Source: an uncultured Alphaproteobacteria bacterium (GTDB lineage Bacteria > Pseudomonadota > Alphaproteobacteria > CACIAM-22H2). From it: a stretch of DNA of 64,000 bases. Positions 1 through 63,126 of this stretch are shown one piece after another. Position numbers and translations under genes: made by a program. Within the stretch, counting starts at the first letter, position 1; each line of letters starts with the position of its first letter. The notes under the pieces were generated by a model. The model had not been told where the DNA came from. It did no database searches and worked only from the letters and a program-made list of their open reading frames with translations. The stretch is from positions 445,993 through 509,992 of the forward strand of contig CAVVJD010000014.1 of NCBI GenBank assembly GCA_963748455.1, given 5' to 3'.

Positions 1-1087
1 AGCATAGTACTTCTCGATCATCTCCACGCTGGTGCGACAATTCTTTGCGATTTGATAGATGTCAGCCCCTTCCATCAGGCGCAGGCAAATATAGGTGTGG
101 CGTAAGCTGTATGCGGTACGCCGGTTGCCTTCGCGATCGATTTTGAGTTCCTGCTCATCAAGGATCGCGTTGAAGAGCTCGTGATGGCTCTTCGGAAAGA
201 TGAGGTCAGTTGGCTGCGGCTTGTTGCGTTCCTTCAGTCTCTGAAACGGCCGCACGGCGCCCATCGTGCTCTTGCAATATCCGACGCCGCGCTTGCCGCG
301 CACTTCAATTTCCAGAATTGTTTCGCGCGTGGCGTCGTCGCGGACGACGCTCACGTCGCGGTACTGAAGCCTTGCGGCCTCGTCAGGCCGCAGGCCGGTA
401 TTGGCCATAAACAGCACGTAGTCGTGCAACTGCTCGGATTGCCACATCCAGCGTTTCTTGAGCGGCTTGGCCGCCCTTCGGCGGGTCGCCACATAAAGCC
501 GCTTGTATTCTTCCGGCGAAAACCATGCACGGTGCGTAATTTTTCCGGAACGTCGGAAGGGTTCCGACAGATCAGGCAGATATGGAAGCCAACCGTGGCG
601 GTTGGCTGCTCTTAGGACTTGTCGGAGCGTGACGATCTCCTGGTGGATCGTCTGTCGCGCGGGTGGCTTGCCCCAGCGGGCAAGCGCCTTTTCGCGTCGG
701 TGAATACGATACTCCTGCACTAGGCCCGGCGTGATCTCCAAAACCGTCTTTTCACCGAAGAATGGCAGAAGGTGGTTGTCCAACCTGCGGCGGTGATCTT
801 GGACATAAACCGGGCTGCGATGCCCCTCCGTCATGACCTCGTATTCGCGCCAGAACGTCTCGGCAGCAAGGCGGAAGAGTTTTCCGTCTTTGATTTCACC
901 ACGCCGGTGTTTGCCCTTGAGTTCGAGATACCAATCCTCGGCAAATTCCTTGGCGAGCGCGAGGCTCTCTTCCTTCGTGCTGACACGACGATTCTTGCCC
1001 GAAAGAATAAGTGGAACACTGCCAATATCTGCTGTTCTCGCGGCGGTAGACGTGAAGCTTCCCGCCCATCAACTCATGGCTCTGCAT
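1..1087 (-). CDS. int: Tyrosine-type phage/island integrase, 3' end beyond window edge. The N-terminal ~20 codons are in a different frame, so there is an apparent frameshift near 1010.
   Basis: Reverse-strand translation reads continuously from about 1068 to 1: ...FMANTGLRPDEA...RTAYSLRHTYICLRLMEGADIYQIAKNCRTSVEMIEKYYA. This is the classic R..HxxR..Y catalytic C-terminus of tyrosine recombinases. An N-terminal YRRENSRYWQ motif in the adjacent frame (ORF 896..1087) implies a shift. No stop before position 1. Confidence 0.8.
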
Positions 1088-1117
1088 TTAACGTGGACCC
1101 CGCCGGCTCGCCGCTAA

Positions 1118-1236
1118 ACGAGCTGGTTTGTGTAAGTGTTGTGTAAGCGGATTCTAGGGGGTCCCGAGGCGCCAAAATCAAATACAAACTATTGATTTTA
1201 ATAAGAGAATTTTAACGAAAAATTATTTCCTTTTTC
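1118..1236. mobile_element. Element-end/att arm region: direct TGTGTAAG repeats (1121-1148) plus an AT-rich about 90-bp stretch between the integrase start and the tRNA fragment.
   Basis: Local GC drops sharply (aatcaaatacaaactattgattttaataagagaattttaacgaaaaattatttcc). Two copies of TTGTGTAAG sit 11 bp apart immediately upstream of int, a typical position for arm-type recombinase/IHF sites. Confidence 0.45.
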
Positions 1237-1276
1237 GACTTTAAGTCCAGTGCGTCTACCATTCCGCCACGCCCCC
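1237..1276 (-). pseudogene. tRNA-Leu(UAA) 5' fragment (acceptor, D-arm, anticodon loop CTTAAAG) truncated in the 3' anticodon stem. Putative attachment-site remnant of the integrated element.
   Basis: Minus strand reads GGGGGCG-TG-GCGG-AATGGTAGA-CGCA-C-TGGAC-TTAAAGT-C followed by AT-rich non-tRNA sequence. It aligns to bacterial tRNA-Leu 5' halves (GGTGGCGGAATTGGTAGACGC...). No T-arm (GTTCGAATC-like) or CCA-end follows. Confidence 0.6.
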
Positions 1277-11555: not shown

Positions 11556-12273
11556 GATGTCCGATCCGAAAAAATCTCCCGATGAGAAAGGCGGGCTCGA
11601 CGAGGCGCCGCATTATCTGGGGCACCGGCAGCGGCTGCGCGAGCGCTTCCGCGCGGCCGGCGGCGCCGGGCTCCCCGATTACGAGCTGATCGAGCTGCTG
11701 CTGTTCGCCGCGATCCCGCGGCGCGACGTCAAGCCGCTGGCGAAGACGCTCGAGAAGAGCTTCGGCGGGTTTGCCGGACTGATTTCAGCGTCGCGCGAGC
11801 GCCTCGAAGCGGCGGGGCTCGGCGACAGCGCCATTGACCTGCTCAAAATCGTGCGCGAGGCGGCGGTGCGGCTGGCGCGGGAGGAAATGACGGAGCAGCC
11901 GGCGATGGGCTCGTTCCAGAAGGTGCTCGATTACTGCCGCACCGACATGGCGCATGCCGGCGTCGAGCATTTCCGCCTGCTCTTCCTCGACCGCAAGAAC
12001 AAGGTGATCGGCGACGAGGTGCAGCAGCGCGGCACGGTCGATCACACGCCGGTCTATCCGCGCGAGGTGGTGAAGCGCGCGCTGGAGCTTGGCGCCTCGG
12101 CCATCATCATGGTGCACAATCACCCGAGCGGAGATCCCTCACCTTCCAAGGCCGATATCGAAATGACGCGCGAGGTGGTGAAAGCGGCAGCCGCGCTCGG
12201 CGTGGCGGTGCATGACCACCTGATCATCGGCAAGCGCGGACACTCCAGCCTCAAGAGCATGGGGCTCTTGTGA
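11556..12273 (+). CDS. radC: RadC-family JAB-domain protein.
   Basis: HNHPSGDPSPSKADIEMTR JAMM motif. N-terminal HhH-like region LPDYELIELLL. Confidence 0.85.
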
Positions 12274-12344
12274 TCCGTCACCGGTTCGGGCTAATTCCCG
12301 GACCCTGCCATGCCGCTTCCCTTCCCGCTTCAGGAGGACGGTCT

Positions 12345-12992
12345 ATGCCCAAGCTTCGCGTTCACGGCTTTTCCATTTCCCTCGACGGCTACGGCGCCGG
12401 CCCCAACCAGAGCCTCGACAACCCGCTCGGCGTCGGCGGTGAGGCGCTGCATGAATGGACCGTTGCCACGTGCACCTTTCAGAAAATGGTCGGCAAAGAC
12501 AGTGGTACAACGGGGACAGATGACGATTTCACAGCGCGTGGGTTTGAAGACATCGGCGCCTGGATCCTGGGCCGCAACATGTTCGGGCCAGTGCGCGGAC
12601 CGTGGCCCGACGAGAGATGGAAAGGCTGGTGGGGCGACAATCCGCCTTATCACGTGCCCGTCTTCGTGCTGACCCATCACGCCAGGGCGCCGATCACCAT
12701 GGAGGGCGGCACCGTTTTCCATTTCGTGACCGACGGCATCCACGCCGCGCTGAAGCGCGCCAGCGAGGCCGCGAAAGGTCAGGATATCCGGCTGGGCGGC
12801 GGGGCTGCGACCATCCAGCAATATCTGCGCGCGGGTCTCATCGACGAGATGCATCTGGCGATCTCGCCGATCCTCCTGGGATCAGGCGAGGCGCTGTTTG
12901 CGGGCATCGACGCCCACACGCTCGGCTATCGATGCATCGAACACGTTGCCACGGCGAGCGCGACGCATGTCGTTCTCGCCATGCGCGGATGA
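12345..12992 (+). CDS. Dihydrofolate-reductase-family (RibD C-terminal domain) protein.
   Basis: MPKLRVHGFSISLDGYGAG... and GGGAATIQQYLRAGLIDEMHLAISPILLGSG are typical of the RibD_C/DHFR-like family. Good RBS AGGAGG. Confidence 0.75.
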   Translation: MPKLRVHGFSISLDGYGAGPNQSLDNPLGVGGEALHEWTVATCTFQKMVGKDSGTTGTDDDFTARGFEDIGAWILGRNMFGPVRGPWPDERWKGWWGDNPPYHVPVFVLTHHARAPITMEGGTVFHFVTDGIHAALKRASEAAKGQDIRLGGGAATIQQYLRAGLIDEMHLAISPILLGSGEALFAGIDAHTLGYRCIEHVATASATHVVLAMRG

Positions 12993-12998: not shown

Positions 12999-14214
12999 TT
13001 CAGCGCGTCGCATTCTTGACAAGAGGGCACTTGCTCTCGGACAGCGGCCATACGGTTTCCTCGGGCGCGATCTTGCGCACGATCTCGAAGTAGTCCCACG
13101 GATACTTGGACTCCGCCGGTTTCTTCACCCGCGCGAGATACATCGTGCGCGTGACACGGCCGTCCTCGCGGATGCGCGCGTTCTCCGAAAAGATGTCATC
13201 GATCGGATCGCGCGCATCGCGGCCGCAACCTTGTCGGCATCGTCGGTGCCGGCCTTGGCGATCGCCTTGAGATAGTGGCGCACCGCGCCATAGACGCCCG
13301 CGTGCAGCATCGAGGGCATGATGCCGGTCTTGGCCATGAACTGCTTCGACCAGGCGCGTGTCGCGTCATTCGTGTCCCAATAGGACGCGGTGGTGAGATA
13401 CGTGCCCTGCGCGGCGCTAAGCCCGAGCGCGTGCACGTCCTGGAGGAAAAAGATCAGCGCCGCGAGGCTTTGTCCGCCTTGCACGAGGCCGAACTCGGCC
13501 GCCTGCTTCATCGCGGTGATGGTGTCGTTGCCCGCATTGGCGATGCCGATCACCTTGGCGCCGGACGATTGCGCCCGGAGCAGGAACGAGGAGAAATCCG
13601 CGGTGTTGAGCGGGTGGCGCGCGGCGCCCAGCACCTGGCCCCCCGCTGCGGTGATGACTTTGGTCGCATCGCTTCTGGAGCTGATGCCCGAACGCATAGT
13701 CCGAGGCGAGGATGAACCACGACGTTCCGCCCGCCTTCACCACTGCCGAGGCCGTCCCGTGCGACACCGCATAGGTGTCGTATGTCCAATGGAAGCCGTA
13801 GGGCGAGCACTGCTCGTTCGTAAGCGCGGTCGTGCCCGCGCCGGAATAGAGCACGATCCGCTTCTGCTCGCGCGCAAGATTCTGGATCGCGAGCGCCACG
13901 CCCGAATTCGGCACGTCGACAATCGCATCGACGCCTTCGACATCGAGCCAGCGCCGCGCGATCGAGAGGCCGACATCGGCCTTGTGCAGATGATCCGCCG
14001 AGATCACCTGCACCGGCTTGCCGAGCACCATGCCGCCGACTTCCTGGATCGCCATCTCGGCCGCGACGACCGATCCCTTGCCGGTGATGTCGGCGGTCAC
14101 GCCCGCAAGGTCGGTCAGGACGCCGATCTTGACGACATCGCCGCTGATCTGGGCCTGTGCCGCGATGGGAAGCATTGCGGCGAACAGGGCCGCGCCGAAC
14201 ATGTTCAGCCTCAT
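12999..14214 (-). pseudogene. Branched-chain amino acid ABC transporter substrate-binding protein (LivK-like), two frameshifts (near 13210 and 13700).
   Basis: Three consecutive minus-strand frames encode the N-terminal (signal + VKIGVLTDLAGV...), middle (IGIANAGNDTITAMKQAAEFGL...) and C-terminal (RIREDGRVTRTMYLARVKKPAESKYPWDYFEIV) parts of one LIV-binding protein. A single missing G in gcgcgcgatcc restores the last junction. Confidence 0.7.
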
Positions 14215-14245
14215 CTCTCGTTTCCTCCGATGTCCGTATCGTTGT

Positions 14246-41567: not shown

Positions 41568-41676
41568 TCGCAAGCAGCGCATTTTTTGCAGGGACGAACT
41601 CTCAAGCCACGCCTAGAATGCGATCTTGGTGAGTCCTCCGAGTGCGCCGAGCCCGGCCGGGATGGGACCTCAACCA

Positions 41677-45178: not shown

Positions 45179-45227
45179 CCCCCTCCTTCACCGCCGACCT
45201 TCCTACAACGACCACGCCGATACCCGC

Positions 45228-45325
45228 CAACGAGCAAAACATCAAGCGCTTCCGCACCAGCTTCAACTTGGCACGGGTCAAATACGAGACCAAGGTGCCA
45301 CTGGAGGAGAACGCCACGGCCTGAC
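45228..45325 (+). pseudogene. Remnant: diverged 3' end (last about 31 codons) of an Lrp/AsnC-family gene.
   Basis: Encodes ANEQNIKRFRTSFNLARVKYETKVPLEENATA*, versus ANEHNIKRFRTSFNLSRIKYETKVPLGAAASD* at the end of the intact lrp (41470..41567). About 85% nucleotide identity over about 95 bp. Confidence 0.75.
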
Positions 45326-45962: not shown

Positions 45963-48455
45963 ATGCGCAAGACTTTCTTCTATGCCGGCGTGTTCCTCAC
46001 ATGCCTGGCGACATTGATGCTGCAGATCATCGAGACGCGCCTGCTCTCGGTGACCGCGCATTATCATCTCGCCTTCTTCTCGATCAGCATGGCAATGTTC
46101 GGCATGACGGCCGGTGCCGTCTGGGTTTACTACAACAGTGCGCGCATCACCGCTGAAACTCTAGCGTCCACCCTGACCAAATTCGGGTCCGCTTTTGCCC
46201 TTGGCACCGTCGCCTCGGTCCTGCTGCAAGTCACGCACGCCCCGGTCCTGGTTCTGTCCGCCACCACGATCCTGACCTGGGCCGAACTCGCCATCGTCAT
46301 GGCGACGCCGTTTTTCTTCTCGGGCGTGGTTGTCAGCATCGCCCTGACGCGCAGTCCCTTCCCCGTAAATCAGATCTACGCCGTCGACCTGATCGGTGCC
46401 TCGCTCGGATGTCTGGGCGTGCTCGCTCTCCTGGATGTCCTCGATGCCGTTTCCAGCATTTTCGCGGTTGCGGCCGTCGGCGCCGCGGCGGCGGGCTGCT
46501 TTGCCGCGTCCGCGGCCCGGCCTGCACGACGCAATTCCCGGCTTCTGGATCGCGTCCTGTTCCGCCCGTGGACGATCTGCGCGGTGCTGATCGCAATGGC
46601 CGTGGCGAATGGCGCCACGATCCGGGGTATCCAGCCGATCGTCGTCAAGAACACGGTCGACCGCCGCGAGAACCTGTCGTTCGAGCAATGGAACTCCTAT
46701 TCCAGAATCATCTCGCGAAAGCCGTATGTCGACGAGCCGCTGCTGTGGGGCCCCTCACCGACAATGCCGGCGGATTTGAAGGTCGAGCAACGCCGCCTCA
46801 ACATCGATGGCGACGCCGCGACGAGCATGTTCCGGTTCAATGGCGATGTCGCCAGCGCCCGGTTCCTGGCCCATGACGTGACAAACCTCGCCTACGCCAT
46901 CCGCAATTCGGGACGCGCCGCGATCATCGGCGTCGGCGGCGGCCGCGACATGTTGTCGGCCTGGATGTTCGGCTTTCGCGACATCACGGGCGTCGAGCTC
47001 AATCCCATATTCATCGATCTCCTTACGACTCATCCGAATTTTCGGAACTTCGCCGGCCTCGCGTCGCTGCCGGGTTTGCGTTTCATCGTTGACGAGGCTC
47101 GCAGCTGGTTCGCGCGATCGACCGACAGTTTCGATCTCATCCAGATGAGCATGATCGATACGTTCGCGGCGACCGGTGCCGGCGCGTTCTCGCTCTCCGA
47201 GAACGGGCTTTATACGATCGAAGGATGGCAGCATTTCCTGAACCGTCTTGCGCCGAACGGCGTGTTCACGGTCAGCCGATGGTATTCCGCAGGTGAGGTC
47301 AATGAGACCGGCCGGATGATCAGCCTCGCGGTCCGCACGCTGTTGGACAACGGCGTGCACGACCCGTCACGCCACATCTTTCTCGGCGCGACCGGAAATC
47401 TTGCGACGCTGGTGCTGTCACGCACCCCACTCACCGCTGCCGAGATTGCAGCATTGCACAAGACTTCGAGCGATCGGGAGTTTCAGATCCTGCTCAGTCC
47501 CGGACGTCCGGCAGCGTCGCCGCTTCTGGCGTCCATCACCGCCGCGAAGAGTCCTGCGGAACTCGCGCGCGCGACGTCGGGGTATCTCCTCGATCTCAGT
47601 CCACCCACCGACGACCGCCCGTTCTTTTTCAATCAACTGCCGCTGACACGGGCCCACATGGCTCTCAACGTGCAGAGTTTCGAGAAGCCCGGCGTTCTGA
47701 GCGGCAACATCATCGCGTCGGCGACGCTGCTGCTGATCGTCGTCCTGGCGTCGATCCTGGTGCTGGCGACGATCGTGATCCCGATGCGGCCGGCGATCCG
47801 GCAATCCGATGCGCGCCTGATCGCCGCCGGCACGGTTTATTTCGTCCTGATCGGCCTCGGCTTCATGTTTGTCGAGATCGGGTTGTTGCAGCGGCTCTCG
47901 GTCTTTCTCGGCCACCCGATCTATTCGCTCAGCATCGTGCTGTTCAGCATCATTCTCTTTACCGGCCTCGGCAGCTTCGCCTCCGCGCGCCTTGCCCTTG
48001 ACCAGTCCGGCCGGTTTGCGGCCTGGGCGATCGGGCTCGCGGCCTATGTCTTTGTCCTGCCGATCATGCTGCCGGCGTTCATCGAGTCCTTCGCGGGGGC
48101 CGACACATTTCAGCGCGCGATCGTCGCTATCGGCCTGATCGCGCCCGGTGCCATCCTGATGGGGTTCGGCTTTCCCGCGGGCATGCGTCTGGTCATGCAG
48201 ATCGATGCCCGCCCCGCGCCATGGTTCTGGGGCATGAACGGGGCCGCGGGCGTGCTGGGCTCGGCCATCGCGGTCGCCATCAGCATCTCATTCGGAATCG
48301 ATACGACGCTTCGCCTGGGTGCGTTGTGCTACCTGGGGCTGCATCCCCGCCGCCTATCTGCTCGTCGGCGAGCGCCGGGCACAGATCGAAGCCGCCATCC
48401 TGCCGCCATCGGTGACGGCTACCGATTGACCACCATGCGATTGTCCGAGGCGTAG
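45963..48455 (+). CDS. Membrane-embedded spermidine/spermine-synthase-like fusion protein (N-terminal multi-TM, central aminopropyltransferase-like SAM fold, C-terminal multi-TM). Possible frameshift in the last about 35 codons.
   Basis: About 7 N-terminal TM helices. SAM-fold motifs AIIGVGGGRDM and DLIQMSMIDTFAATGAG. About 7 C-terminal TM helices. An alternative frame near 48345 gives a hydrophobic tail ...GLIPAAYLLVGERRAQIEAAILPPSVTATD*. Confidence 0.7.
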   Translation: MRKTFFYAGVFLTCLATLMLQIIETRLLSVTAHYHLAFFSISMAMFGMTAGAVWVYYNSARITAETLASTLTKFGSAFALGTVASVLLQVTHAPVLVLSATTILTWAELAIVMATPFFFSGVVVSIALTRSPFPVNQIYAVDLIGASLGCLGVLALLDVLDAVSSIFAVAAVGAAAAGCFAASAARPARRNSRLLDRVLFRPWTICAVLIAMAVANGATIRGIQPIVVKNTVDRRENLSFEQWNSYSRIISRKPYVDEPLLWGPSPTMPADLKVEQRRLNIDGDAATSMFRFNGDVASARFLAHDVTNLAYAIRNSGRAAIIGVGGGRDMLSAWMFGFRDITGVELNPIFIDLLTTHPNFRNFAGLASLPGLRFIVDEARSWFARSTDSFDLIQMSMIDTFAATGAGAFSLSENGLYTIEGWQHFLNRLAPNGVFTVSRWYSAGEVNETGRMISLAVRTLLDNGVHDPSRHIFLGATGNLATLVLSRTPLTAAEIAALHKTSSDREFQILLSPGRPAASPLLASITAAKSPAELARATSGYLLDLSPPTDDRPFFFNQLPLTRAHMALNVQSFEKPGVLSGNIIASATLLLIVVLASILVLATIVIPMRPAIRQSDARLIAAGTVYFVLIGLGFMFVEIGLLQRLSVFLGHPIYSLSIVLFSIILFTGLGSFASARLALDQSGRFAAWAIGLAAYVFVLPIMLPAFIESFAGADTFQRAIVAIGLIAPGAILMGFGFPAGMRLVMQIDARPAPWFWGMNGAAGVLGSAIAVAISISFGIDTTLRLGALCYLGLHPRRLSARRRAPGTDRSRHPAAIGDGYRLTTMRLSEA

Positions 48456-48618: not shown

Positions 48619-49262
48619 TCAATAGGCAAGGCGACCATAGAGCTCCTCGAACGGAACCATCACGTGCTGTTGATAGGCGCGACGATCCTGGAGGCGCTGA
48701 TACCAGGCCTTCACGTTGGGAACCGACGGGCGCTCAATCTCAAGATTGAAATAGCGATAGAGACAGGTTCCGGCCGGAATGTCGGCCAGCGTCAGGGCGT
48801 TGCCGAGGAGGAAATCGCGCCCCGCGAGCTGACGATCGAGCAATGTGAAATGCCGCGCGCAGAGATCGATCTTCTTGCGCACTGCCGCCGTGTCGCGCTG
48901 CCGCGCCGGGGTGCAATAGAAGCCCCAGAAAACGCCCATCAGGAAATCGGGCTGCAGCGTGGTGTGCGCCCAATCCATCCAGCGATCCGATTGCGAGCGT
49001 TCGGCCGGCGCATCCTGCCAAAATGCGCCCCGCCTATAGTGAGCCGCCAGATATCGCAAGATTGCGTGCGATTCCCAGACGACCGTGCCGTGATCGTCGA
49101 TCACCGGCACCTTGCCGTGCGGGTTCATGGCGCGAAATTCGGCGCGTCCAGGCCACCGAAGGAACCGCCGGCCTCGATATGCCGGTGCTCGAGCCCAAGC
49201 TCGTCGACCATCCACATGACCTTCTGCACATTGAATGAGCTGCGCCGCCCCCAGATCGTCAG
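48619..49262 (-). pseudogene. Glutathione S-transferase, frameshift near 49140.
   Basis: N-terminus MLTIWGRRSSFNVQKVMWMVDELGLEHRHIEAGGSFGGLDAPNF is in one frame. The continuation MNPHGKVPVIDDHGTVVWESHAILRYLA... (ORF 48619..49353) is in another. Confidence 0.7.
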
Positions 49263-49294
49263 CATTCAATACCCCTCTCGCATGCACGCGTCGG

Positions 49295-50508: not shown

Positions 50509-52092
50509 CTATCGATTGACGACCATCCGGTTGCCTGATGCGTAGTGGCGCAGTCCACGCTCGAAGATGAAGACCGCAAGCGCGCCATAGATGCAAGCTG
50601 CCGCAATCACAGCAGCGAACTTGCCAGGATCAGACTCGCGTATGGCCTCAACGGGCACCTGTGAGATGAACGCGACCGGCAACAGCGTGAACAGCAGGAT
50701 GCGCATGCCGGCCCCGAAGACGTGCTGGGGATAGACCGAGATCATCAGCACGACATTGACCAGCTCCTCGCCCAGGCGCACGGCGCGCGGCCACCAGAAG
50801 ACCAGGCACTGGCCCATCACGAAGGTGGCCAGCATCACGATGCCGCCAGCGGTGGCGAGCGCGATCAGCAGCGGCAGATCGGCAACGCTGCGCCCGCCCA
50901 GCACCAGCCACATCACGGGCGCACTGGCGAGATCGCCGAAGCCCGATGGGATCGAGCGCGACAGCAGCAGGCTGGGCAGCGGATGACGTGGCCGGCCGAG
51001 ATGGACATCGAGCCCGCCATCGGCGATGGCGCGGCCCATGTCGCGGAAGCCGCCGGCCATCGTCACGCTCAGGCCGAACGCCCAGGCCGCCATGCCGTAG
51101 AGCAGCGCGACATCCTGCTGCTGCCAGCCGGCCAACTCGCGAAAGCGCGCGAAATAGATCATCCAGATGATGAAGAAGACGAGGTTGTTGGCGAACATCA
51201 GGACGACGGAAACCAGCGCCTCGCCGCGCCGCGCGAAACCGGCCTTGATGTTGGTTGCCAACAGGGCGCCGAGATAGGTCAGCATGGCTGAGACTTCGTC
51301 GCGCACGAAACGGCGTGTCGCCGCGGCCGCAAGCAACGCCACGGCGATACCGACGATCGCCAGCCAGAAGACCTGCCAGGCGAAGACGCGCGCAATCGCG
51401 TGCGCGCTTGAGTCAAAGACCAGGCTCGCCGGGTGGAACATGATGGCGGCGAATGGCGACACCTCGCCGATGGCGCGGATGGCCGGCGGATAGAGGGTGA
51501 GCGGGATCAGCAGCCCGCCGAAGATGAACGCCAGCTTCTGCCAGACCCAGAAGAACGGTGCGGGCGTGCTGAGCCAGGCGGTCAGCAAGCCGGTGCCGAG
51601 CTGGAGCAGCAGCATGAGCACGGCGCCGACCGCCACGGTCAGCACCAGGACCGGCACCGTCACGAGGGCAAACGGCACCGTTCCCGTCGCCAGCGCGGTG
51701 ACGAGCGCGCCGATGGCACCCAGGGTCAGCAGGCGATAGGCGCCGCCGCCCAGCCACTCGGCGAAGACCGCCAGCGCATAGGGCAGCGGGCGCGTGAGGG
51801 AAGCTTCGACGGCGCCGGAGCGGATCTCGTCTTCCACTTCGCGGAAGGCGTGGCCGCCGATGAACACCACCCATTCCGTCACCATCACGTACCAGGCGAT
51901 GCTGGCTGCGTCGTAACCGGGCAGATCGACCAGACCCAGCGGTGTTGCCGCCCAGACCGCGACGAAGACGAGGACGGGCACAACGAACAGCAAAGCCCGC
52001 GCCGCCATGCCGACGCGATCGGCAGCGGCCTCGCGCCAGCCCAAGCGCGCGAAGGCGCCGAGAGCGGCGACGATGCGCGCGACTTCGCTCAT
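50509..52092 (-). CDS. ABC-2-type exporter permease (two fused ABC-2 membrane domains).
   Basis: 527 aa, about 12 TM helices, with duplicated ABC-2 family architecture. Translationally coupled (overlap) with the upstream ATPase. Confidence 0.75.
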   Translation of the reverse strand: MSEVARIVAALGAFARLGWREAAADRVGMAARALLFVVPVLVFVAVWAATPLGLVDLPGYDAASIAWYVMVTEWVVFIGGHAFREVEDEIRSGAVEASLTRPLPYALAVFAEWLGGGAYRLLTLGAIGALVTALATGTVPFALVTVPVLVLTVAVGAVLMLLLQLGTGLLTAWLSTPAPFFWVWQKLAFIFGGLLIPLTLYPPAIRAIGEVSPFAAIMFHPASLVFDSSAHAIARVFAWQVFWLAIVGIAVALLAAAATRRFVRDEVSAMLTYLGALLATNIKAGFARRGEALVSVVLMFANNLVFFIIWMIYFARFRELAGWQQQDVALLYGMAAWAFGLSVTMAGGFRDMGRAIADGGLDVHLGRPRHPLPSLLLSRSIPSGFGDLASAPVMWLVLGGRSVADLPLLIALATAGGIVMLATFVMGQCLVFWWPRAVRLGEELVNVVLMISVYPQHVFGAGMRILLFTLLPVAFISQVPVEAIRESDPGKFAAVIAAACIYGALAVFIFERGLRHYASGNRMVVNR

Positions 52093-53520: not shown

Positions 53521-53685
53521 GATTTGCGTTCTCCCATGCGAGGGCAAAAGCGGGCGTGGGCCCGCTTTATGATCTGCACAGTGGAACGTCGGGAGGACAA
53601 ACCGGTTCCGCGACCCGAATCAGCTCCGACGTGTACGGAGCAATTGCGTCTCCGGCGGTCCGATATATAAAGTTGTGCAACCGCG

Positions 53686-54033
53686 TTGGCCTACGCGACG
53701 ATCGCGCAGACGCGCCTGACGTTGTGGGGCGACGCGTCGCTGTCGATCGGCGCGCTGGTTGCCCTGGCCGTGCTGGCGATCGGGATTTTCCTGGTGCACG
53801 GCACCGCGTTCGGACGCACGGTGTATGCGATCGGCGGCACACTACTCACCGGCGGTGTCGGCTATGTCGCCCGCACGCTATTCGGGGTGCTTATCCTGGG
53901 CACCATCCAGACGCTGATCAATTTCGACGGGTCGCTCAGCTCGTGGTGGACGCGGATTGTCATCGGCGCCTTGCTGTTCGCCTTCTGCCTGTTACAACGG
54001 GTGTTCGAGGCCGGGCGCGGCCGCGCGCCATAA
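53686..54033 (+). pseudogene. Remnant: C-terminal about 100 aa of a sugar (ribose/xylose-type) ABC transporter permease.
   Basis: TVYAIGGTLLTGGVGYVARTLFGVLILGTIQTLINFDGSLSSWWTRIVIGALLFAFCLLQR resembles the conserved C-terminus of RbsC/XylH-type permeases (…AIGGN…A…SGI…). No N-terminal 200 aa present. Confidence 0.5.
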
Positions 54034-54083
54034 GGGCGCGGGGCGCCCCTGGCCTCGTCGAGCCCGCAGCAACAAAAGGGGTC

Positions 54084-54407: not shown

Positions 54408-54547
54408 TCGGTCGCATTCTCCTCAGCAGTCGGCGCATGGCAGATGTGCTGCCGCGCTGCTTATATAGTCCCTCCGGAATAAAGTACAAAGGCTCGCCGA
54501 ACCGTCCCTCCCCCCCGTTTCAGCCCCCGACAAGCAAGCCGCCGTCC

Positions 54548-55304
54548 ATGTGCACTGTCATCGTCCTGCGCCGTCCCGACCATGCTTGGCCCCTGCTGTT
54601 TGCGGCCAATCGCGATGAAATGGCCGACCGACCGTGGAAGCCGCCGGGACGGCATTGGCCCGATCGCAAGGAGGTGACCGGCGGTCAGGACGAGCTCGCG
54701 GGCGGATCATGGCTGGGGCTCAACGACGATGGCGTCCTGGTGGGGGTGCTGAACCGGCCCGGAACACTGGGGCCGATCCCGGGCCTGCGCTCGCGTGGCG
54801 AGCTGGTGCTGGAAGCGCTGGATCATGCCGATGCGATTGCCGCCGTCGCGGCGATGCGCGACCTCGATTCTCGCGCCTATCGGGCCTTCAACCTTGTTAT
54901 TGCCGATAACCGCGATGCCTTCTGGATCCGTTCCTTGGGCCGCGCCGGCCCGATCCGCCCGACCGTCGCCGAAATCCCGACCGGGTTGTCGATGATCACG
55001 GCCCATGACCGCGACGACCCGGAATCCCGCCCGGATCCGCTTCCATCGCCCCCGTTTTGCCGCTGCCAAGACCCCCGACCCCGACAAGGGCGACTGGGCC
55101 GCCTGGGAGAAGCTGATGGCCAGCCGCGAGAGCGAGCCTGGGGCCGGCCCGCACGGGGCCATGACGATCGTCACGGAGACCGGCTTCGTCACCACCAACT
55201 CGTCGCTGATCGCCCTTCCGAGCCCCGGCAGCGGCCGCAAGCCGCTCTGGCGCTTCGGCAGCGGCCACCCGGATTCGATCCGCTATGAGCCGGTAAGTCT
55301 TTGA
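54548..55304 (+). pseudogene. NRDE-family (DUF833/TANGO2-like) protein, frameshift near 55025.
   Basis: MCTVIVLRRPDHAWPLLFAANRDE... has the NRDE motif in the frame of 54437..55288. The C-terminal part (RIRFHRPRFAAAKTPDPDKGDWAAWEKLMAS...) is in frame 55005..55304. Confidence 0.65.
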
Positions 55305-56492: not shown

Positions 56493-56504
56493 CTCTCGCG
56501 CAAG

Positions 56505-56551
56505 CAGCCTCACCCTTCGACAAGCTCAGGGTGAGGCTTTTTTCTTGAGTT
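56505..56551 (+). terminator. Rho-independent terminator of purC-purS, formed by a REP-type palindrome (CCTCACCC...GGGTGAGG) followed by a T-run.
   Basis: cagcctcacccttcgacaagctcagggtgaggcttttttctt: stem CCTCACCCT/AGGGTGAGG then TTTTTTCTT. Confidence 0.65.
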
Positions 56552-56585
56552 CCTCATCCTGAGCTTGTCGAAGGATGAGGGCGTT
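56552..56585. repeat. REP-type palindrome, CCTCATCCTGAGCTTGTCGAAGGATGAGG family.
   Basis: cctcatcctgagcttgtcgaaggatgagg. A second copy of the same family sits at about 63075-63120 (catccctcgcttgtccaaggatgagg). Confidence 0.7.
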
Positions 56586-56588
56586 GCG

Positions 56589-56954
56589 TCACTCGACCAC
56601 GACGATCTTCGCTTCCATCTCCTCGTGGCCCTCGCCGCAGAAGACGTCGCAGGTCACTTCAAAGCTGCCTTCCTTGTCCGGCGTCACGCGCAGGCGCACG
56701 GTTTCTCCTGGCAAGGCCTCCACGCGCCAGCCAAGGGCCGGCACCTTGAAGCCATGACTGCGATCGAGCGTCGTCAGCTCGATGATCACCGCCTCCCCTT
56801 TCTTGAGGGTGATTTCCGCGGGCTCGAACTCGAACTTCTTGGCGGTGATGTGGACCACCTTGTCCGCGCGCGCGACACCGCGATCGCCGACGCCGAAGGC
56901 CACGCCAATCGCCAGCGCCGGCGCTAGGACAAGCATCGCAAAGCGACGGCTCAT
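56589..56954 (-). CDS. Secreted cupredoxin-fold (putative copper-binding) protein.
   Basis: Signal peptide, then a type-1 copper-like ligand pattern (H...C..F.C..GH..M: SHGFKV...TCDVFCGEGHEEM). Confidence 0.7.
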   Translation of the reverse strand: MSRRFAMLVLAPALAIGVAFGVGDRGVARADKVVHITAKKFEFEPAEITLKKGEAVIIELTTLDRSHGFKVPALGWRVEALPGETVRLRVTPDKEGSFEVTCDVFCGEGHEEMEAKIVVVE

Positions 56955-57040
56955 ACGGGTCCAAGCGGCGTTTCCGCGACGGCGAGGTCATCCGAGCCGG
57001 CCTTGGCGCCGACGCGCCGCCAGCCCAGCCCCTTGTTGGG

Positions 57041-57850
57041 CTATGCGGGATCCCAGGCCACGGGGGGCGTGCGCTTGGGCTGCGAGCCGGGAGACGGCTG
57101 CGGGAAGATCAGCGACAGCGCCGCGTGATGGGCGATGTGGCCCGTCTTGTGGTGATGCTCCTGGTGGATGTGGCCGTAAAACACCGTCACGTGCTCGAAG
57201 GGCATCAACAACACGACCGCCGCGGCGCCGTCTTTCGTCGCCCAATCCCATTGCGGATAGAGATCGAAGAGCGGCCGGTGGGCGAGCACCACGATCGGCG
57301 TTTCCCGATCCAGCTGCGCGAGGTCGGATTTGAGCCAGGCCAGTTGCTCGTCGCCGATCGCCGCGGCCGGATCGGAAACGTTGTCGAGCGCAATGAAGTG
57401 AATGCCCTTGTGGTCGAAGGTGTAGTGGGTCTTGCCGAAGAACTCCTGGTAGGCAACGCCGCCGTCGAGCGCCGCATCGTGCTCGCCCGGCATGAAGCGC
57501 AGCGTCTTCACCTTGAGCTCGGCGACGATGGCGCGAAATTCGGCCATGCGCTTGCGCCGCTCGGCGGCATCGTCGGTGGTGTGCGTCAGATCGCCGGTGA
57601 AAACGATGAAATCCGGTTGCTGCGCCAGGCCGTTCACCGCCGCGACCGCCTTTTTGAGCGTGTTGGCGGCATCGGGGTTGGGCGGGCCCCTGAAGCCCCA
57701 ATGCGTGTCGGTGAGCTGAAGGAAGAAAAAATCCTGCGTTGCCGTCTTGGCCTGCGCGAAACGGTGCGGCCCGGCGAGGCCGGAGGCGAAGGCCACCCCA
57801 CCCAGCCCGGCCAGCCTGGCGAAGTCGCGGCGATCGATCTTGAGGGTCAT
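57041..57850 (-). CDS. Tat-secreted metallophosphoesterase (calcineurin-like).
   Basis: Twin-arginine signal DRRDFARLAGLGGVA. Metallophosphatase motifs LTDTHW, VFTGDLTH, LAHRPL..., YGHIHQEHH. Confidence 0.8.
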   Translation of the reverse strand: MTLKIDRRDFARLAGLGGVAFASGLAGPHRFAQAKTATQDFFFLQLTDTHWGFRGPPNPDAANTLKKAVAAVNGLAQQPDFIVFTGDLTHTTDDAAERRKRMAEFRAIVAELKVKTLRFMPGEHDAALDGGVAYQEFFGKTHYTFDHKGIHFIALDNVSDPAAAIGDEQLAWLKSDLAQLDRETPIVVLAHRPLFDLYPQWDWATKDGAAAVVLLMPFEHVTVFYGHIHQEHHHKTGHIAHHAALSLIFPQPSPGSQPKRTPPVAWDPA

Positions 57851-58052
57851 CGTGATCTCCCTTGGCGTGCATGAACTCGCACCGGCCAAGACCCAAGGCC
57901 GGCCGCTTTTATTCACGCGCGGCCATGAGATTTTTCCGGGAATAAAAACAAAGGTTCGGCGGTATTGTGCAGTCAGGACCCGCGAGCGCGGACCGTCCAG
58001 CGCGAAGGACACGCCTTTGGGCGACAACGACAGAACCCGGCGGTTCGAGGCG

Positions 58053-58577
58053 ATGGCACTGCCGCATCTCGATGCGGCCTATAACCTGGCGCGCTGGCTG
58101 ACGCGCGCCGACCAGGATGCGCGCGACGTGGTGCAGGATGCTTATTTGCGGGCGTTTCAGTTCTTCGACGGGTTCAAGGGCGGCGACGGCCGCGCCTGGC
58201 TGCTGACGATTGTGCGCAACACGGCCTTCAACTGGCTCAAGCGCAACCGCAAGAGCGCGATCGAGACGGTGTTCGACGAAGCCATGCATGGCGGCGCTAG
58301 CGTGAGCGCGATCGGTCCCGCACCGGCGGCCAATCCGGAGACACTGCTGTTGCAGCGCGCGGATTCAGAGGCGATCGATCGCGCCATCGCTGACCTGCCT
58401 TTGCCGTTTCGCGAGGCGATCGTTCTGCGCGAATTGGAGGAGCTCTCGTACGCCGAGATTGCCGAGATTGCCGGCGTGCCGATCGGAACCGTGATGTCGC
58501 GCCTGGCGCGCGCGCGCGAGTTGTTGCGCCGCGCCCTGACCGACGGGTCCAACCGGGAGCGCCGCCATGGCGGATGA
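58053..58577 (+). CDS. ECF (sigma-70 group IV) RNA polymerase sigma factor, start uncertain.
   Basis: Region 2 (ARDVVQDAYLRAFQFF) and region 4 (LSYAEIAEIAGVPIGTVMSRLARARELLR). Confidence 0.8.
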   Translation: MALPHLDAAYNLARWLTRADQDARDVVQDAYLRAFQFFDGFKGGDGRAWLLTIVRNTAFNWLKRNRKSAIETVFDEAMHGGASVSAIGPAPAANPETLLLQRADSEAIDRAIADLPLPFREAIVLRELEELSYAEIAEIAGVPIGTVMSRLARARELLRRALTDGSNRERRHGG

Positions 58578-59262
58578 AGACACGACCGGCGCCGACGCCA
58601 TCCTGAGCGCTGCAATCCGCGGCAAGGCGACCTATCACCCCGCACCGCCGGCCCTGAGTGGAAGCGTGCGCGCGGCCATTGCCGATGCCGACGCCAACGA
58701 TGCGGCGTCACCACCGCCGTCGGCTGGCCGCGCATCGTCGCCGGTTTGGCGGCCAGTGGCGCTGGCCGCGTCGTTCGCCTTCGTGACGCTGCTGAGCTGG
58801 AATGTGTGGACCGGAACGATGATGCCGGGGCGCAGCGCCGGCCAGGCACCGGAGATCGTGGCCGCCCATGTGCGCTCGCTAATGGCCAATCACCTGACCG
58901 ATGTGTCGTCGTCGGACCAGCACACGGTCAAGCCGTGGTTCAACGGCAGGCTCGACATCTCGCCGCCGGTCCGCGACCTGACGGCGCAGGGCTTCGCGCT
59001 GGTGGGCGGGCGCCTCGACTATCTCGATCAGCGGCCGGTGGCGGCGCTGGTCTATCGCCATCGCCAGCACATCATCAATCTGTTCGTCTGGCCAACGGGG
59101 AGCGAAACCAGCCCCACACCCACGGCCGCGATGACGCGGCAGGGCTATAACCTGCTCCACTGGCATGACAACGGATTGGCGTACTGGGCCGTTTCGGATC
59201 TGGCCGCCGTGGATCTGAACGAGTTCGAGCGCCTTGTCCGCACGCACTCAAAAGCGCCGTGA
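58567..59262 (+). CDS. Anti-sigma factor (single-pass, RskA/ChrR-like).
   Basis: Start overlaps the sigma gene end. N-terminal cytoplasmic segment, TM helix (VALAASFAFVTLLSWNVW), periplasmic domain. Confidence 0.7.
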   Translation: MADEDTTGADAILSAAIRGKATYHPAPPALSGSVRAAIADADANDAASPPPSAGRASSPVWRPVALAASFAFVTLLSWNVWTGTMMPGRSAGQAPEIVAAHVRSLMANHLTDVSSSDQHTVKPWFNGRLDISPPVRDLTAQGFALVGGRLDYLDQRPVAALVYRHRQHIINLFVWPTGSETSPTPTAAMTRQGYNLLHWHDNGLAYWAVSDLAAVDLNEFERLVRTHSKAP

Positions 59263-59275
59263 GCGCACGCCCGGC

Positions 59276-61678
59276 TCAACTGCCATCGAGCACGGCGCGG
59301 ATTTTGCGGGCCATGTCGGCCATACGATAGGGCTTGTTGAGCAATTGCACGCCGGGATCGAGCCGGCCGTGATGGACCACCACGTTCTCCGTATAGCCCG
59401 ATGTGAACAGCACCTTGATGCCGGGGCGCAATCTCTTGACCTCCTCGGCGACTTGCCGGCCGTTCATTCCGCCCGGCATGACGACATCGGTGAACAGCAG
59501 ATCGATATGCTTGTTCTCGTTGAGCTCGGCCAGCGCCGATGGCCCATCGGGCACGGCGATCACGGTGTAGCCGAGACGGGCCAGCTGCGCGCCGACATGG
59601 CTGCGCACCAGCTCCTCGTCCTCGACCAGCAAGATCGTCTCGGTCCCGGTCGCCGCGACCTTGGCTTCCTCGGGCGCCAGCGCTTCCTGCTCGGTGCCGG
59701 TCCCGCGCGGCAGATAGAGGCGGACGATCGAGCCGTGGCCGAGCTCGCTGTAGATATTCACGTGTCCGCCCGATTGCTTGACGAAACCGTAGACCATGCT
59801 GAGCCCGAGACCCGTACCTTTGCCGAGGGCCTTGGTCGTGAAGAACGGCTCGAAGGCGCGCGCGATGACTTCCGGCGTCATGCCGGTTCCGGTATCCGCC
59901 ACGGCGACCATGACGTACTGACCCGGACGCACGTCGCCGCGGCTGTCGGCGTAGTTCTGATCGACATAGGCGTTGCCAGTCTCGATCGTCAATTTACCGC
60001 CCTGGGCCATGGCATCGCGACCATTGATCGCAAGATTCAAGATCGCGCTTTCGAGCTGGCTTGGATCGATGAAGGTCCGCCACAGGCCCGCGGCACGAAC
60101 AAGCTCGATCTCGATCTCCTCACCGAGCGCGCGGCGCAGCAACTGGTCCATATTGGCCAGCAGAACGTTGACGTCGACGAGGCGCGGCCGCAGCGCCTGG
60201 CGGCGCGAGAACGCGAGGAGATGGCGCGTCAGATCGGCGCCGCGCTCCCCAGCCGTGCCGATCAACGCCGCCAGGCGGCGCTGGCTCTCGTCGGGTAGTT
60301 GCTCCGTCAGGGCGTCGGCGTTGCCGATGATGATGGTCAAAAGATTGTTGAAGTCGTGGGCGATCCCGCCGGTGAGCTGGCCGATCGCGTCCATCTTTTG
60401 CGACTGACGCAGCCGCTCCTCGGCCTCACGCTGCTCGGTTATGTCGCGTGCCGTGCCGCGGTAGCCGATAAATCGCCCCTCCGCATCAAAGATCGGTTGG
60501 CCATTGACGCTGAGATGACAAATGCGACCGCTTGAATCGGGACGCTTGTACTCGAAATTGCGGAACGGCTCGTGGCGCTCGAGCGTCGCCATATGGTCGC
60601 GCCACTTCTCCGGCTCTGTTTCCAAATCTATTGCCACATCGGTGCGACGCTGACCGGGGACGGGCGCCGGGCGGTCGATGCCAAACGCCGTGATCTGGTC
60701 GGAGATGTAGGTGAAGACATGATCGGCGTCGCTTTCCCAGAACCAATCGGAGGAGCTTTCGGCGTAGTCGCGGAACTTTTTCTCACTCTGACGCAAGGCC
60801 TCTTCGGCACGCCGGCGCGCTACGATATCGTTCTCAAGCTCGGCATTGGTCTCGCGCAAATCGTCGTAGGCGCGCTGCAAGCTGGCAAACAGGTCGTTGA
60901 AGGCCACGACGACCTTGTCGAGCTCATCTTGTGTCTTGGGCGGCCGGCGCTGCAGGGTGAGTGCCGGTGGCCGCCGGGCCAGATCGTAACCGCCGACGAA
61001 CCCGGCGATGGCCGTCAGGTGACGCGTCACGAGCCAGTGAACGATGTAGAGGATGAACAGCGACACCAGAAAGGTCTTTGCGGCCTGGTTCAGCAAGATG
61101 ATCGACGCCCGGTTCAGCAACTCCTCGTAGACCTCGGTCAGCGTGGCGACGACGGAGAAGACGCCGATCGACTGCTTGCGCCCCTGGATCGTGCGGACCA
61201 GCGGAAATTCGCGGGTGATGGCCGAATGCGTTGAGCGATCGCCCGCGACGAGGATGAGTGGGCTCTGGCTTGCGGTGGTCTCGTGAACGGCGGCGCTGCG
61301 AATAGCCGGCAGACGGAGAATTCCGTTCAGCTGGATCTCCAGCTGGTTCTTATCCAAGTTCCATAGGCTCTCGCTGAGGCTGCCGAGATAGCTGCGCTCG
61401 ATCTCCGAGAGCCGGGTCTCGATGTGCCGGACCTCGCGGTTGTAGTCGAGATAAAGCTGGAGTGCCGTCAGGATCAGCGTCACGACCGAGCTGAACAGAA
61501 GGACACTTCCCAGCAGACGCAGACCGATACCGCCGCGCAACCGCGACAGCATCGGCCAGCGCATGTCATCCGCGGCAGCCTGAATTTCGCCACGGCGAGC
61601 GCCGCTCAACGCCGCCGCATGCAGCCTGCCCCCGGCCGGATGGGGCGACGCCGCCTCGTCATGTCGCGACGACTCCAT
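59276..61678 (-). CDS. Hybrid sensor histidine kinase (TM/sensor region, PAS, HisKA, HATPase_c, C-terminal receiver).
   Basis: H-box [14 protein letters not shown] boxes ([27 protein letters not shown]), receiver [11 protein letters not shown]...[15 protein letters not shown]...K. Intact 800-aa ORF. Confidence 0.9.
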
Positions 61679-61912
61679 ACAATGCCCCCTCAGACGTTGG
61701 CTCGCGCCCGCCTCTCGGGGCGCTGGGCAGAATTCGGCGAGGATGTCGACAGTAAGGCTGTGTCGGTCGCGGCGGACGATTGTTGTTCGGGTTTGCGTCC
61801 GCTCGGCGCCGTGCTGATCAATATCTTAGAGCCGGCAAGCGGCACCGCCAAGACCGCATCGACGCCCGCGCGTATTCGCCGACCGTCCCGTCGAAATCCC
61901 GGGCAGGCCCCA

Positions 61913-62859
61913 TCAATCGTTGTGGTGACTCAGTCTCAGACGGATGTCGGGATCATTCACGTTGGCGGCGCTCACGACCAGGAAGTCGACCATGATCTGC
62001 GCGGGAATTTGCCGGCCGGACTGGGCCTGAACGGCCCGCTGGACCGCTTGATAGCCCATCTGGTAGGCGTCCTGCACGACCATCAGGTAGAGATCTCCGC
62101 GGCGCAGATCGTCCTCGAAACTGGGCCGGTAGTCGAAGCTCAGCAGGAGCGGCCGCTTCGCCGGCGCCCAGTCCTGCAAAACTCGCATCGCGCTGATGCC
62201 GATCTTGCCTGTCGGCGTGAAGACGGCGTCCAGGGCGCCTTGATGCGGCGCCAGGATGACGGCGGCAATCGCCTGCGCCTCGCGCAAATCGTGACCGACA
62301 TAGCTATCGACAACGACGTTGAGGCCCAACTCCTTGGCCGTGTCGATGAACCCCGCCTCGCGCGCCGAGGTCGAGACGACATACGGCGCCAGGCGCAGTA
62401 CGCCGACCTTCGCGCCCTTCGGCAAGCGCCCTTGCAAGGACAGGGCGGCCGCACGTCCGCCGCCGTAATTGTCGGTCGCAATCGTCGAGAGGGATTTGAA
62501 AGCGTCGCTTGAGCCGATCGACGAAGATCACCGGCACCGGAAATTCGATCGGCGTCGGGACACCGACAACCGGCATCGGCGCCAGGATCAGCGCCTTCGC
62601 CCCGGCCGACAACATGATACTGGACCATCTTGAGCTGCAGATTCTGCTCGACGCTGGTCGGATTGTCGTCGACGGGGCTGCGGATCAGGACATGGACGCC
62701 GAGATCATTGGCGGCCTGGACAATGCCCTTCTCCATCACATTCCAGAAGGGCCCGCGCGTTCCCGCCAGGACGGCACCGATATCCTGGGCGTGGGCGACG
62801 TGCGGCGATAGAGAAACTATTGTCAGAAACAGCGACAGCAGAATGAGCCTTGCGCGCAT
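61913..62859 (-). pseudogene. Periplasmic binding protein (sugar-binding/LuxP-like PBP domain), two frameshifts.
   Basis: Signal peptide plus N-domain in 62140..62859. Middle segment is in 62304..62615 and C-terminal domain in 61913..62437, so shifts lie within 62437-62615 and 62304-62437. Adjacent to the hybrid kinase. Confidence 0.65.
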
Positions 62860-63126
62860 GGCGCGGCCTTTCCGCTTGCGCGATCACCGGCGCGCTCGCG
62901 CAAACCAATGGTCGATCGCCAGGGGCATGGAGCAAACTGAGCGCGACGGCACGATAGCCCCCGAGCATCCAATGCTCATCGCAGCATAAGCCGGACGTCG
63001 AGACTGAACAAGATAGCGGCGCATTGGCATGCTGCCGGCGTGTTCGCCTCGCCCTTCGACAATCTTAAGATGAGGTAGGTGAAGACATCTTCATCCCTCG
63101 CTTGTCCAAGGATGAGGATGTCGCGC

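Follow-up and report, generated by a model that had tools for sequence, protein, structure and literature searches.

Single-base insertions that break genes in an alphaproteobacterial contig are probably errors in the sequence record rather than gene decay

Are the many frameshifted genes in this stretch of DNA pseudogenes of the organism, or are they faults in the sequence that was recorded for it? Fourteen of the ~63 genes in the window (the whole 64,000-nucleotide stretch analyzed here) are broken by small frame shifts, which is far more than in an ordinary free-living genome; taken at face value, a fifth of the window's genes would be pseudogenes, and the locus would tell of a decaying genomic island or of reductive evolution. 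We placed the shifts by frameshift-aware protein-to-DNA alignment to intact orthologs, and by nucleotide alignment to metagenome contigs of 90-95% identity. Compared with the intact orthologs, the 14 genes contain 32 frame-breaking events (30 insertions and 2 deletions), nearly all of which consist of one additional base of no particular identity. Every shift that had been proposed from the sequence alone was recovered and confirmed against intact orthologs, at the stated position or no more than a few bases from it; two events are concealed in the 3′ tails of seemingly open genes (the RibD_C-family gene and the 830-aa gene described below). The original prediction had also suggested a comparison with relatives, with intact frames at every site as the outcome that would speak against it, and this is what we observed wherever the sites could be tested: no site is disrupted in the orthologs that the soil-metagenome contigs (90-95% identical) carry.

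The tyrosine integrase (1-1087, reverse strand) runs off the left edge of the window and has a +1 event at about 1007, between ‘QCSTY’ and ‘LSGKN’; its alignment with a Rhizobium plasmid integrase covers residues 1-361 of the latter, with this one event and no stops. The RibD_C-family gene (12270-12992, forward strand) has a +1 event at about 12957, missed in the original prediction, that alters its last ~18 residues, and the ortholog's tail (VRRMSFSPSADESPSA) is matched in the +1 frame only (ARRMSFSPCADEGSSA). The first LIV-type substrate-binding protein (13015-14216, reverse strand) has two events, since a base is added at 13674 and a C is lost at 13206 (CCC to CC), and the roughly 155 codons between them are out of frame; contig L167 (93.4% identical) carries an intact 401-aa ortholog, and the comparison gives a dN/dS of 0.17 and no stops. 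One extra base each was located at about 21511 in the livM-like permease (20981-21900, reverse strand), where three orthologs concur on the shift, at about 22278-22282 in the livH-like permease (21890-22760, reverse strand), and at about 23214-23228 in the second LIV-type substrate-binding protein (22774-23985, reverse strand), the last two being supported by orthologs as well. In each of these LIV genes one Pfam domain bridges the proposed junctions: for example, Peripla_BP_6 covers both junctions of the first binding protein, and positions 3-269 of the 269 in BPD_transp_2 are matched across the junction in livM. The same is true of the CoxL, glutathione S-transferase, and ribose-type binding protein genes.

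The small lipoprotein (26305-26810, reverse strand; one extra base at 26728) and the AAA_16/GerE (“MalT-like”) regulator (27378-30000, reverse strand; one extra base at 28094) both have intact orthologs in L166, of 167 and 873 aa; the lipoprotein shares 97.6% amino acid identity with its ortholog (dN/dS 0.10), and the regulator has a dN/dS of 0.14 and no stops. The large subunit of the CoxL-type molybdenum hydroxylase (30150-32475, reverse strand) has extra bases at 31459 and 31821, both junctions being covered by MoCoBD_1, and is 98.1% identical at the amino acid level (dN/dS 0.046) to an intact ortholog of 773 aa (P0121 / L166). In the 830-aa membrane/spermidine-synthase-like gene (45963-48455, forward strand), a shift in the tail had been listed as possible, and it is real: there is an extra C (+1) at about 48342, 28 codons upstream of the natural stop, eight homologs continue ‘...CYLxL IPAxxLL’ in the +1 frame only, and alignments in the open frame stop at query residue ~792. 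The glutathione S-transferase (48628-49265, reverse strand) has one missing base at about 49140, within the region covered by GST_N, and its alignment with a Burkholderia GST covers residues 1-213 of that protein, with a single -1 event and without stops. An extra C at 55028 (CC to CCC) breaks the NRDE/TANGO2-family gene (54437-55195, forward strand), of which L001 has an intact 251-aa ortholog (98.4% amino acid identity, dN/dS 0.058). Finally, the ribose-type periplasmic binding protein (61922-62838, reverse strand) has extra bases at about 62511 and 62617; positions 1-257 of the 258 in Peripla_BP_4 are matched across both junctions, and alignment with a Paraburkholderia homolog shows two +1 events, a signal peptide, and no stops.

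Half of the events fall in one gene of 1161 codons, which encodes zinc-ribbon, class III cyclase, AAA_16, and TPR domains (41676-45178, forward strand). The original prediction recognized it as a multi-shift gene with about 10 shifts; compared with the intact gene in the relative L004, there are 16 insertion events adding 17 nt, at 41845, 41933, 42029, 42465, 42581, 42870, 43586, 43680, 43771, 44131, 44422, 44670, 44678, 44871, 44925, and 44969-70. This is 16-fold above the background density (16 events vs. ~1 expected; P ~3e-14). The gene keeps its ATG start and TAG stop, shares 90.3% nucleotide identity with L004 over 3.78 kb, and shows no deletion and no stop codon over the full-length alignment; its dN/dS is 0.17. 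Using L005 as the outgroup, we assigned 41 synonymous and 17 non-synonymous codon changes to the window branch, and 89 and 39 to the branch of the intact L004 gene, so the non-synonymous:synonymous ratios are 0.41 and 0.44, respectively, and the changes on the window branch follow the pattern of purifying selection. The cyclase lies within a repeat-bracketed segment (41469-45324, forward strand), in which a 99-nt direct repeat of the lrp 3′ end is found at 41469-41567 and 45226-45324 (85% identical); this segment coincides with the insertion-dense stretch, and L004 shares the lrp-cyclase junction. The many shifts in this gene had been taken as a sign of at least some real decay. Because all 16 events are insertions, and because the gene is full length, free of stops, and has a low dN/dS and an ordinary ratio of synonymous to non-synonymous changes, it is instead the strongest evidence against decay.

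The events that lie outside the cyclase are distributed as expected for uniform random placement: 16 events over 54.5 kb of coding DNA strike 13 genes (13.7 expected at random), and the probability that three or more genes are struck twice is 0.31. The proposed concentration of frameshifts in accessory genes thus lacks statistical support outside the cyclase, since a 7.5 kb set of housekeeping genes would also be clean by chance with P ~0.09. Most of the housekeeping genes named as clean are indeed so: NCBIfam models cover hisC, map, purB, and radC end to end, and purC, purS, and the kinase match their orthologs without shifts; the exception is the gene described as an 830-aa membrane fusion, with its +1 event near the 3′ end.

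Other signs of decay were also sought in the broken genes. Shift-aware alignments of the 14 genes revealed no in-frame stops, and no nonsense mutation, IS insertion, or frame-breaking deletion of more than 1 nt was found in them; wherever a complete ortholog was available, the alignments run from the first residue to the last or near it, with starts and stops kept. The dN/dS values of the broken genes (0.05-0.17) are comparable to those of intact neighbours (0.00-0.16), so neither a raised dN/dS nor, in the cyclase, an excess of non-synonymous changes on the window branch, as expected under relaxed selection, is seen. In-frame length differences between broken genes and their orthologs do occur.

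The direction of the events and the identity of the inserted bases bear on every explanation. Natural bacterial pseudogenes and mutation-accumulation lines have an insertion:deletion ratio of 0.76-0.94 (PMC6054270), that is, deletions at least as frequent as insertions, whereas at least 30 insertions among 32 events would arise with a probability of ~5e-8 under the natural ratio (for the cyclase alone, 16 out of 16, P = 1.5e-5). The 23 resolved inserted bases comprise 8 A, 5 G, 5 C, and 5 T, in a window of 65% G+C; 16 of them match neither neighbour, five make a run of 2, and two make a run of 3, while a uniformly random base is expected to match a neighbour 44% of the time. No motif common to the insertion sites was found among the site contexts. 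Since 16 of the 23 bases match neither neighbour, slippage and homopolymer miscalls both fail as an explanation, and the statement that several junctions sit in homopolymers holds for a minority of sites only. Classical homopolymer-length miscalls (454, Ion Torrent, or older nanopore chemistry) are a very unlikely source, largely refuted by these contexts: a few sites do lie in short runs (CC to CCC at 55028 in the NRDE gene, TT to TTT at 31821 in CoxL, and CCC to CC at 13206 in the first binding protein), but such miscalls would give both over-calls and under-calls rather than a split of 30:2, and the longer G/C runs, in a sequence of 65% G+C, show no event. The dominance of +1 events, and nothing more, would favour biological recoding, in which programmed +1 ribosomal frameshifting or transcriptional slippage would let the cell tolerate the extra bases. 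We regard this as having next to no chance of being correct: the sites are not homopolymeric and have no shared slippery motif or stop codon, all orthologs are unshifted, and 16 such sites in one gene would be unprecedented.

A genuine and very recent pseudogenisation, in which the strain itself carries the shifts and 14 genes, mostly accessory, were just inactivated, has in its favour that the shifts are in the sequence and the relatives are intact, the named housekeeping genes are clean, and real gene relics exist in the neighbourhood; a binding-protein gene is truncated by a deletion in L001, so at least that gene is dispensable. It is nonetheless very unlikely, since the excess of insertions contradicts the universal deletion bias, the inserted bases are untemplated with the four bases used equally, the 14 genes lack all the other inactivating lesions listed above, the cyclase accumulated 16 insertions without a deletion or a non-synonymous excess, and the enrichment in accessory genes is not significant. 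A mixture, in which the cyclase is a true pseudogene of greater age, carried on an inserted segment, while the single shifts dispersed elsewhere are assembly errors, would account for the 16-fold density and for the direct repeats of the lrp 3′ end on either side, which resemble the flanks of acquired DNA; but the cyclase events share the odd spectrum of the rest (all insertions, mostly non-duplicative), the gene has no stop codon or deletion, its two branches have similar ratios of change, and in L004 an identical lrp-cyclase junction leads into an intact gene, which makes this reading very improbable. Even less probable are real insertions from a lineage-specific process that adds untemplated single nucleotides, for which repeated double-strand breaks and Ku/LigD end-joining with terminal-transferase additions would be a candidate; a dozen genes would have been struck very recently, and the repeat-bracketed cyclase segment 16 times.

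Judging from the sequence and its orthologs, the frameshifts are probably errors in the sequence record, of a non-biological and insertion-biased kind, and not evolution in the organism. Single bases of arbitrary identity would have been added to the record, and a base lost twice, at a background rate of ~0.3 per kb that rises to ~5 per kb over the 3.1 kb between 41845 and 44970 inside the 3.5-kb cyclase gene; the genes underneath would be intact and under normal purifying selection, and full-length orthologs are recovered once the extra bases are deleted. The spectrum of events, the lack of decay, and the random placement outside the cyclase are observations, whereas the sequencing platform and the cause of the hot spot are inferred. 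The most likely source would be noisy reads or low coverage yielding a consensus biased towards insertions, as could happen in a long-read genome or metagenome-assembled genome with little or no polishing; the cyclase, on a repeat-bracketed and probably strain-variable segment, would have been covered less deeply or polished less well. An identical signature would result from any other non-biological corruption of the sequence. A hot spot within a single gene is not predicted by purely random errors without such an added assumption of a low-coverage or variable segment, and the non-homopolymer, four-base-equal insertion spectrum matches no single platform's textbook residual-error profile documentable here. 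The two deletions could be genuine; a CCC run is the site of one of them. Of the two readings in the original prediction, the one invoking assembly errors thus named the right kind of cause, but not the homopolymer mechanism, since most inserted bases differ from both neighbours; the reading of real decay does not hold.

There are precedents for such errors: in long-read assemblies, indels are known to fragment ORFs, which then look like pseudogenes, and ORF-length-ratio tests and frameshift-correction tools address this problem (PMC8445201, PMC12007338, PMC9262707). The window resembles long-read or low-coverage assemblies with consensus errors from noisy reads in that the lesions are indels only, nonsense codons and signs of decay are missing, the orthologs are unbroken, taking out single bases reopens the ORFs, the events outside the cyclase show no significant preference for a class of genes, and the overall rates (~2.5e-4 to 5e-3 per base) fall in the range of unpolished consensus. 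It differs from usual assembly errors in that nearly all events are insertions, which are linked neither to homopolymers nor to methylation motifs and draw on the four bases equally, and in that one gene-sized segment has a 16-fold higher density. Programmed +1 frameshifting and slippage-rescued genes likewise have one additional base in a frame that is conserved elsewhere; but in prfB and in the poly-A slippage of insect endosymbionts the orthologs share the sites, which lie in defined contexts (slippery or homopolymeric), whereas the sites here are unique to the window sequence and share no motif. The leaf-nodule Burkholderia symbionts, with pseudogenes under relaxed selection, also have many genes frameshifted relative to functional orthologs, some with several independent indels (PMC6054270). 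However, in natural pseudogene sets deletions outnumber insertions (396:300) and can be larger, nonsense codons occur, and non-synonymous change is elevated (PMC6054270); the broken genes of the window show none of this.

The evidence points to intact genes and a faulty record, and the genome should be polished or frame-corrected before annotation or comparison; until then, pseudogene counts, selection analyses, and pathway calls (e.g., LIV transport, the CO-dehydrogenase-type hydroxylase, and cyclase signalling) are unsafe. Used in combination, the insertion:deletion ratio, the identity of inserted bases, and branch-specific dN/dS offer an inexpensive way to tell false from real pseudogenes without reads. 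Some decay in the neighbourhood is real, as seen in the permease fragment at 53680-53985 and in the truncated binding-protein gene of L001.

We identified 32 frameshift events in 14 of the ~63 genes in the window. When polarised against intact orthologs, they comprise 30 insertions (29 of 1 nt and one of 2 nt) and only two one-base deletions, located in a LIV-type substrate-binding gene (binding protein 1; 13015-14216, reverse strand) at 13206 and in the GST gene at about 49140. Insertions and deletions number 300 and 396 in curated bacterial pseudogenes, and 16 and 17 in a mutation-accumulation experiment with Burkholderia (PMC6054270); under these ratios, the probability of at least 30 insertions among 32 events is about 5e-8. 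The pattern is most likely the product of a faulty consensus, rather than of mutation and selection.

Because the high G+C content produces many spurious open reading frames (ORFs) in the ORF listing, we trained a codon-usage model on the clear genes and decoded the window as a Viterbi path with seven states. The path contains many same-strand frame switches; some of these separate neighbouring genes, and the remainder correspond to the frameshifts listed in the original prediction, every one of which was confirmed by ortholog and nucleotide alignments. Pfam scans of the joined fragments found a single domain continuous over the junctions in both LIV-type binding proteins, livM, livH, CoxL, GST, and the ribose-type binding protein (61922-62838, reverse strand). 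To align orthologs to the loci we wrote a frameshift-aware protein-to-DNA aligner, which called no event in any of 14 intact genes used as controls; nucleotide alignment was added wherever a 90-95% identical contig existed. Extra events upstream of the true starts in stop-to-stop ORF alignments (e.g., at 23985, 22751, and 26845) were artefacts and were dropped. Seven switches on the path (2568/3281, 9108/10263, 36764/37075, 49300/49899, 50644/52098, 56592/57099, and 58044/58561) are not frameshifts: part of them were checked individually, and the others were judged from their translations to be neighbouring or naturally split genes.

Two events are concealed in the tails of apparently open ORFs, so there may be further ones in genes for which no close ortholog was at hand. 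The spermidine-synthase-like membrane gene (830 aa; 45963-48455, forward strand) has a +1 shift near 48342, since the "...CYLxL-IPAxxLL" continuation of eight homologs is found only in the +1 frame. The original prediction had called this shift possible and had also counted the same ORF among the cleanly read genes; the former holds and the latter does not, although hisC, map, purB, purC, purS, radC, and the hybrid (CHASE5) kinase are indeed clean. Similarly, the RibD_C gene (12270-12992, forward strand) has an additional +1 shift in its tail, at about 12957.

The window has a G+C content of 59-69% throughout and resembles chromosomal DNA from a free-living alphaproteobacterium. Gene by gene, its closest named relatives are Inquilinus, Bosea, and Bradyrhizobium (75-89% protein identity). 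Soil-metagenome contigs match it at 90-95% DNA identity, among them L001 (purC-kinase region), L004 (the cyclase gene), L166 (CoxL, MalT-like regulator, GFA, and lipoprotein), and L167 (MarR, hydrolase, and binding protein 1). A genome-contig scan for synteny around the MalT-like gene returned only relatives of at most 77% identity (Inquilinus, Bosea, and a Hypericibacter MAG), with little synteny. The integrase gene (1-1650 region) is cut off by the left end of the window. Scans for tRNA genes and Rfam families found none anywhere in the window, which thus shows neither an attachment site nor an island boundary.

Nucleotide alignment fixed the positions of 23 inserted nucleotides. These are A (8), G (5), C (5), and T (5), although the window is 65% G+C, and 16 of the 23 differ from both flanking bases (for a base drawn uniformly at random, the chance of matching a neighbour is 44%). 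This spectrum and the mismatch to the flanks thus fit neither slippage duplications nor homopolymer miscalls. Several junctions had been described as lying in G/C homopolymers or (GCC)n tracts; short runs do occur, but only at a minority of sites. No motif is common to the insertion sites, and none of ten methylation or restriction motifs (including GATC, GANTC, and CCGG) is significantly enriched after correction; GATC, at 3 of 22 sites, has P = 0.05 uncorrected for the ten motifs. A consensus that keeps both alleles, sought by eye, is not distinctive in the cyclase gene: a substitution lies within 2 nt at 7 of 15 sites, with ~5 expected at 10% divergence.

Other length differences were also observed. 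In-frame differences from close relatives are +30 nt at 50412 in the TPP_N (ComD-like) gene, -18 nt at 60665 in the kinase gene, +9 nt at the end of binding protein 1 (13015), and +15 nt near the RibD_C end (12932); unlike the one-base events, these are ordinary natural indels. Intergenic insertions relative to L166 and L167 are found at 30009 (1 nt), 30126 (1 nt), 27296 (3 nt), 14246 (1 nt), and 15819 (2 nt), and 1-nt intergenic deletions at 15196 (versus L167) and 41572 (versus L004). Part of these insertions may come from the same error process, which is not separable from natural intergenic variation.

Once the extra bases are taken out, the broken genes all align with their orthologs from the N-terminal residue to the C-terminal end or close to it, wherever a complete ortholog was available; they keep their start and stop codons and contain no in-frame stops. 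Their dN/dS values against close relatives are 0.046 (CoxL), 0.058 (the NRDE/TANGO2-family gene; 54437-55195, forward strand), 0.10 (lipoprotein), 0.14 (MalT-like regulator), 0.17 (binding protein 1), and 0.17 (cyclase), compared with 0.00-0.16 for intact neighbours. The absence of stops, the low dN/dS, and the 30:2 excess of insertions speak against the decay of accessory genes that had been proposed.

The cyclase gene (zinc ribbon, class III cyclase, AAA_16, and TPR; 41676-45178, forward strand) is multiply shifted, as predicted, with 16 insertion events (17 nt) instead of about 10. When its substitutions are polarised with another ortholog, L005, as the outgroup, synonymous and non-synonymous codon changes number 41 and 17 on the window branch and 89 and 39 on the intact L004 branch. 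Drift long enough for 16 indels should leave a large non-synonymous excess, some stops, and some deletions, none of which is present; this gene, previously taken to argue for some real decay, is therefore the strongest argument against it. A 99-nt direct repeat of the 3′ end of an lrp/asnC-type regulator gene flanks it (41469-41567 and 45226-45324, 85% identical, both copies ending in a stop codon), which places it on a discrete segment. The arrangement suggests that the cyclase gene was inserted long ago into the 3′ end of lrp, and the upstream lrp-cyclase junction is common to L004.

The coding DNA other than the cyclase, 54.5 kb in all, carries 16 events (0.29 per kb). With length-weighted random placement of events over genes, 13.7 genes are expected to be hit and 13 are; at least three genes are hit twice, as in 31% of random placements; and hisC, map, purB, purC, purS, radC, and the kinase (7.5 kb) are all clean, as in 9%. 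The concentration in accessory genes that had been reported is thus not significant, and the intact housekeeping set is no evidence of selection. The sole exception to random placement is the cyclase (16 events versus about 1 expected, P about 3e-14).

We are fairly confident that the frameshifts are not biological. The extra bases stand at arbitrary places in otherwise well-conserved genes, as a faulty consensus would leave them, and long-read assemblies are known to carry ORF-breaking indels that create false pseudogenes (PMC8445201, PMC12007338, PMC9262707). A consensus that was left unpolished or had thin coverage would match the per-base event rates found here (about 2.5e-4 generally, and about 5e-3 in the cyclase); the repeat-bracketed cyclase segment may have been less well covered or polished, for example if only part of a mixed population carried it. 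The equal-base, non-homopolymer spectrum is no textbook platform profile, and other non-biological corruption would look alike.

The small remaining probability is shared by real recent inactivation of the genes, a mixed case, and homopolymer-type error. The last was the error mechanism originally proposed; error as such stands in modified form, but the homopolymer mechanism does not agree with the 16 of 23 inserted bases that match neither flank. Programmed recoding is essentially excluded, since the sites show no motif and no conservation. A faulty consensus makes the finding a matter of data quality, of low biological interest.

Several features nearby, namely a permease fragment, a truncation in L001, window-specific insertions relative to L001, and an ABC-2 fusion, are genuine biology unrelated to the frameshift pattern. 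The fragment (53680-53985) is a true relic, an orphan C-terminus (~100 aa) from a YjfF/ribose-type ABC permease gene, and lies mostly inside window-specific DNA (about 53717-54044) missing from L001. In the region that aligns with 61922-63030, L001 (9053-9328) has a deletion of about 830 bp, and nothing of the periplasmic binding-protein gene remains there except its last 91 codons; thus, this gene beside the CHASE5 hybrid kinase has truly decayed in that relative, and in the window it is full length except for two extra bases. Two ABC-2 permease genes (50509-52092) are fused in frame near 51290 (TCA GCC ATG) into one 527-aa ORF, and their L001 counterparts are separate (a TAG stop, then ACC ATG). 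The window carries 2.8 kb of DNA between purS and the kinase (56499-59275), with a cupredoxin-like gene, a metallophosphoesterase, and an ECF sigma/anti-sigma pair, that L001 and two other relatives (L002 and L003) lack; in these, purS adjoins the kinase. A nitrile-hydratase-like cluster (36686-38023) resembles the three-subunit arrangement of thiocyanate hydrolase: its beta subunit is encoded by two adjacent ORFs (36686-37081 and 37078-37380), a natural split with no frameshift, and its alpha-like gene starts with a histidine-rich stretch (about 37378-37450).
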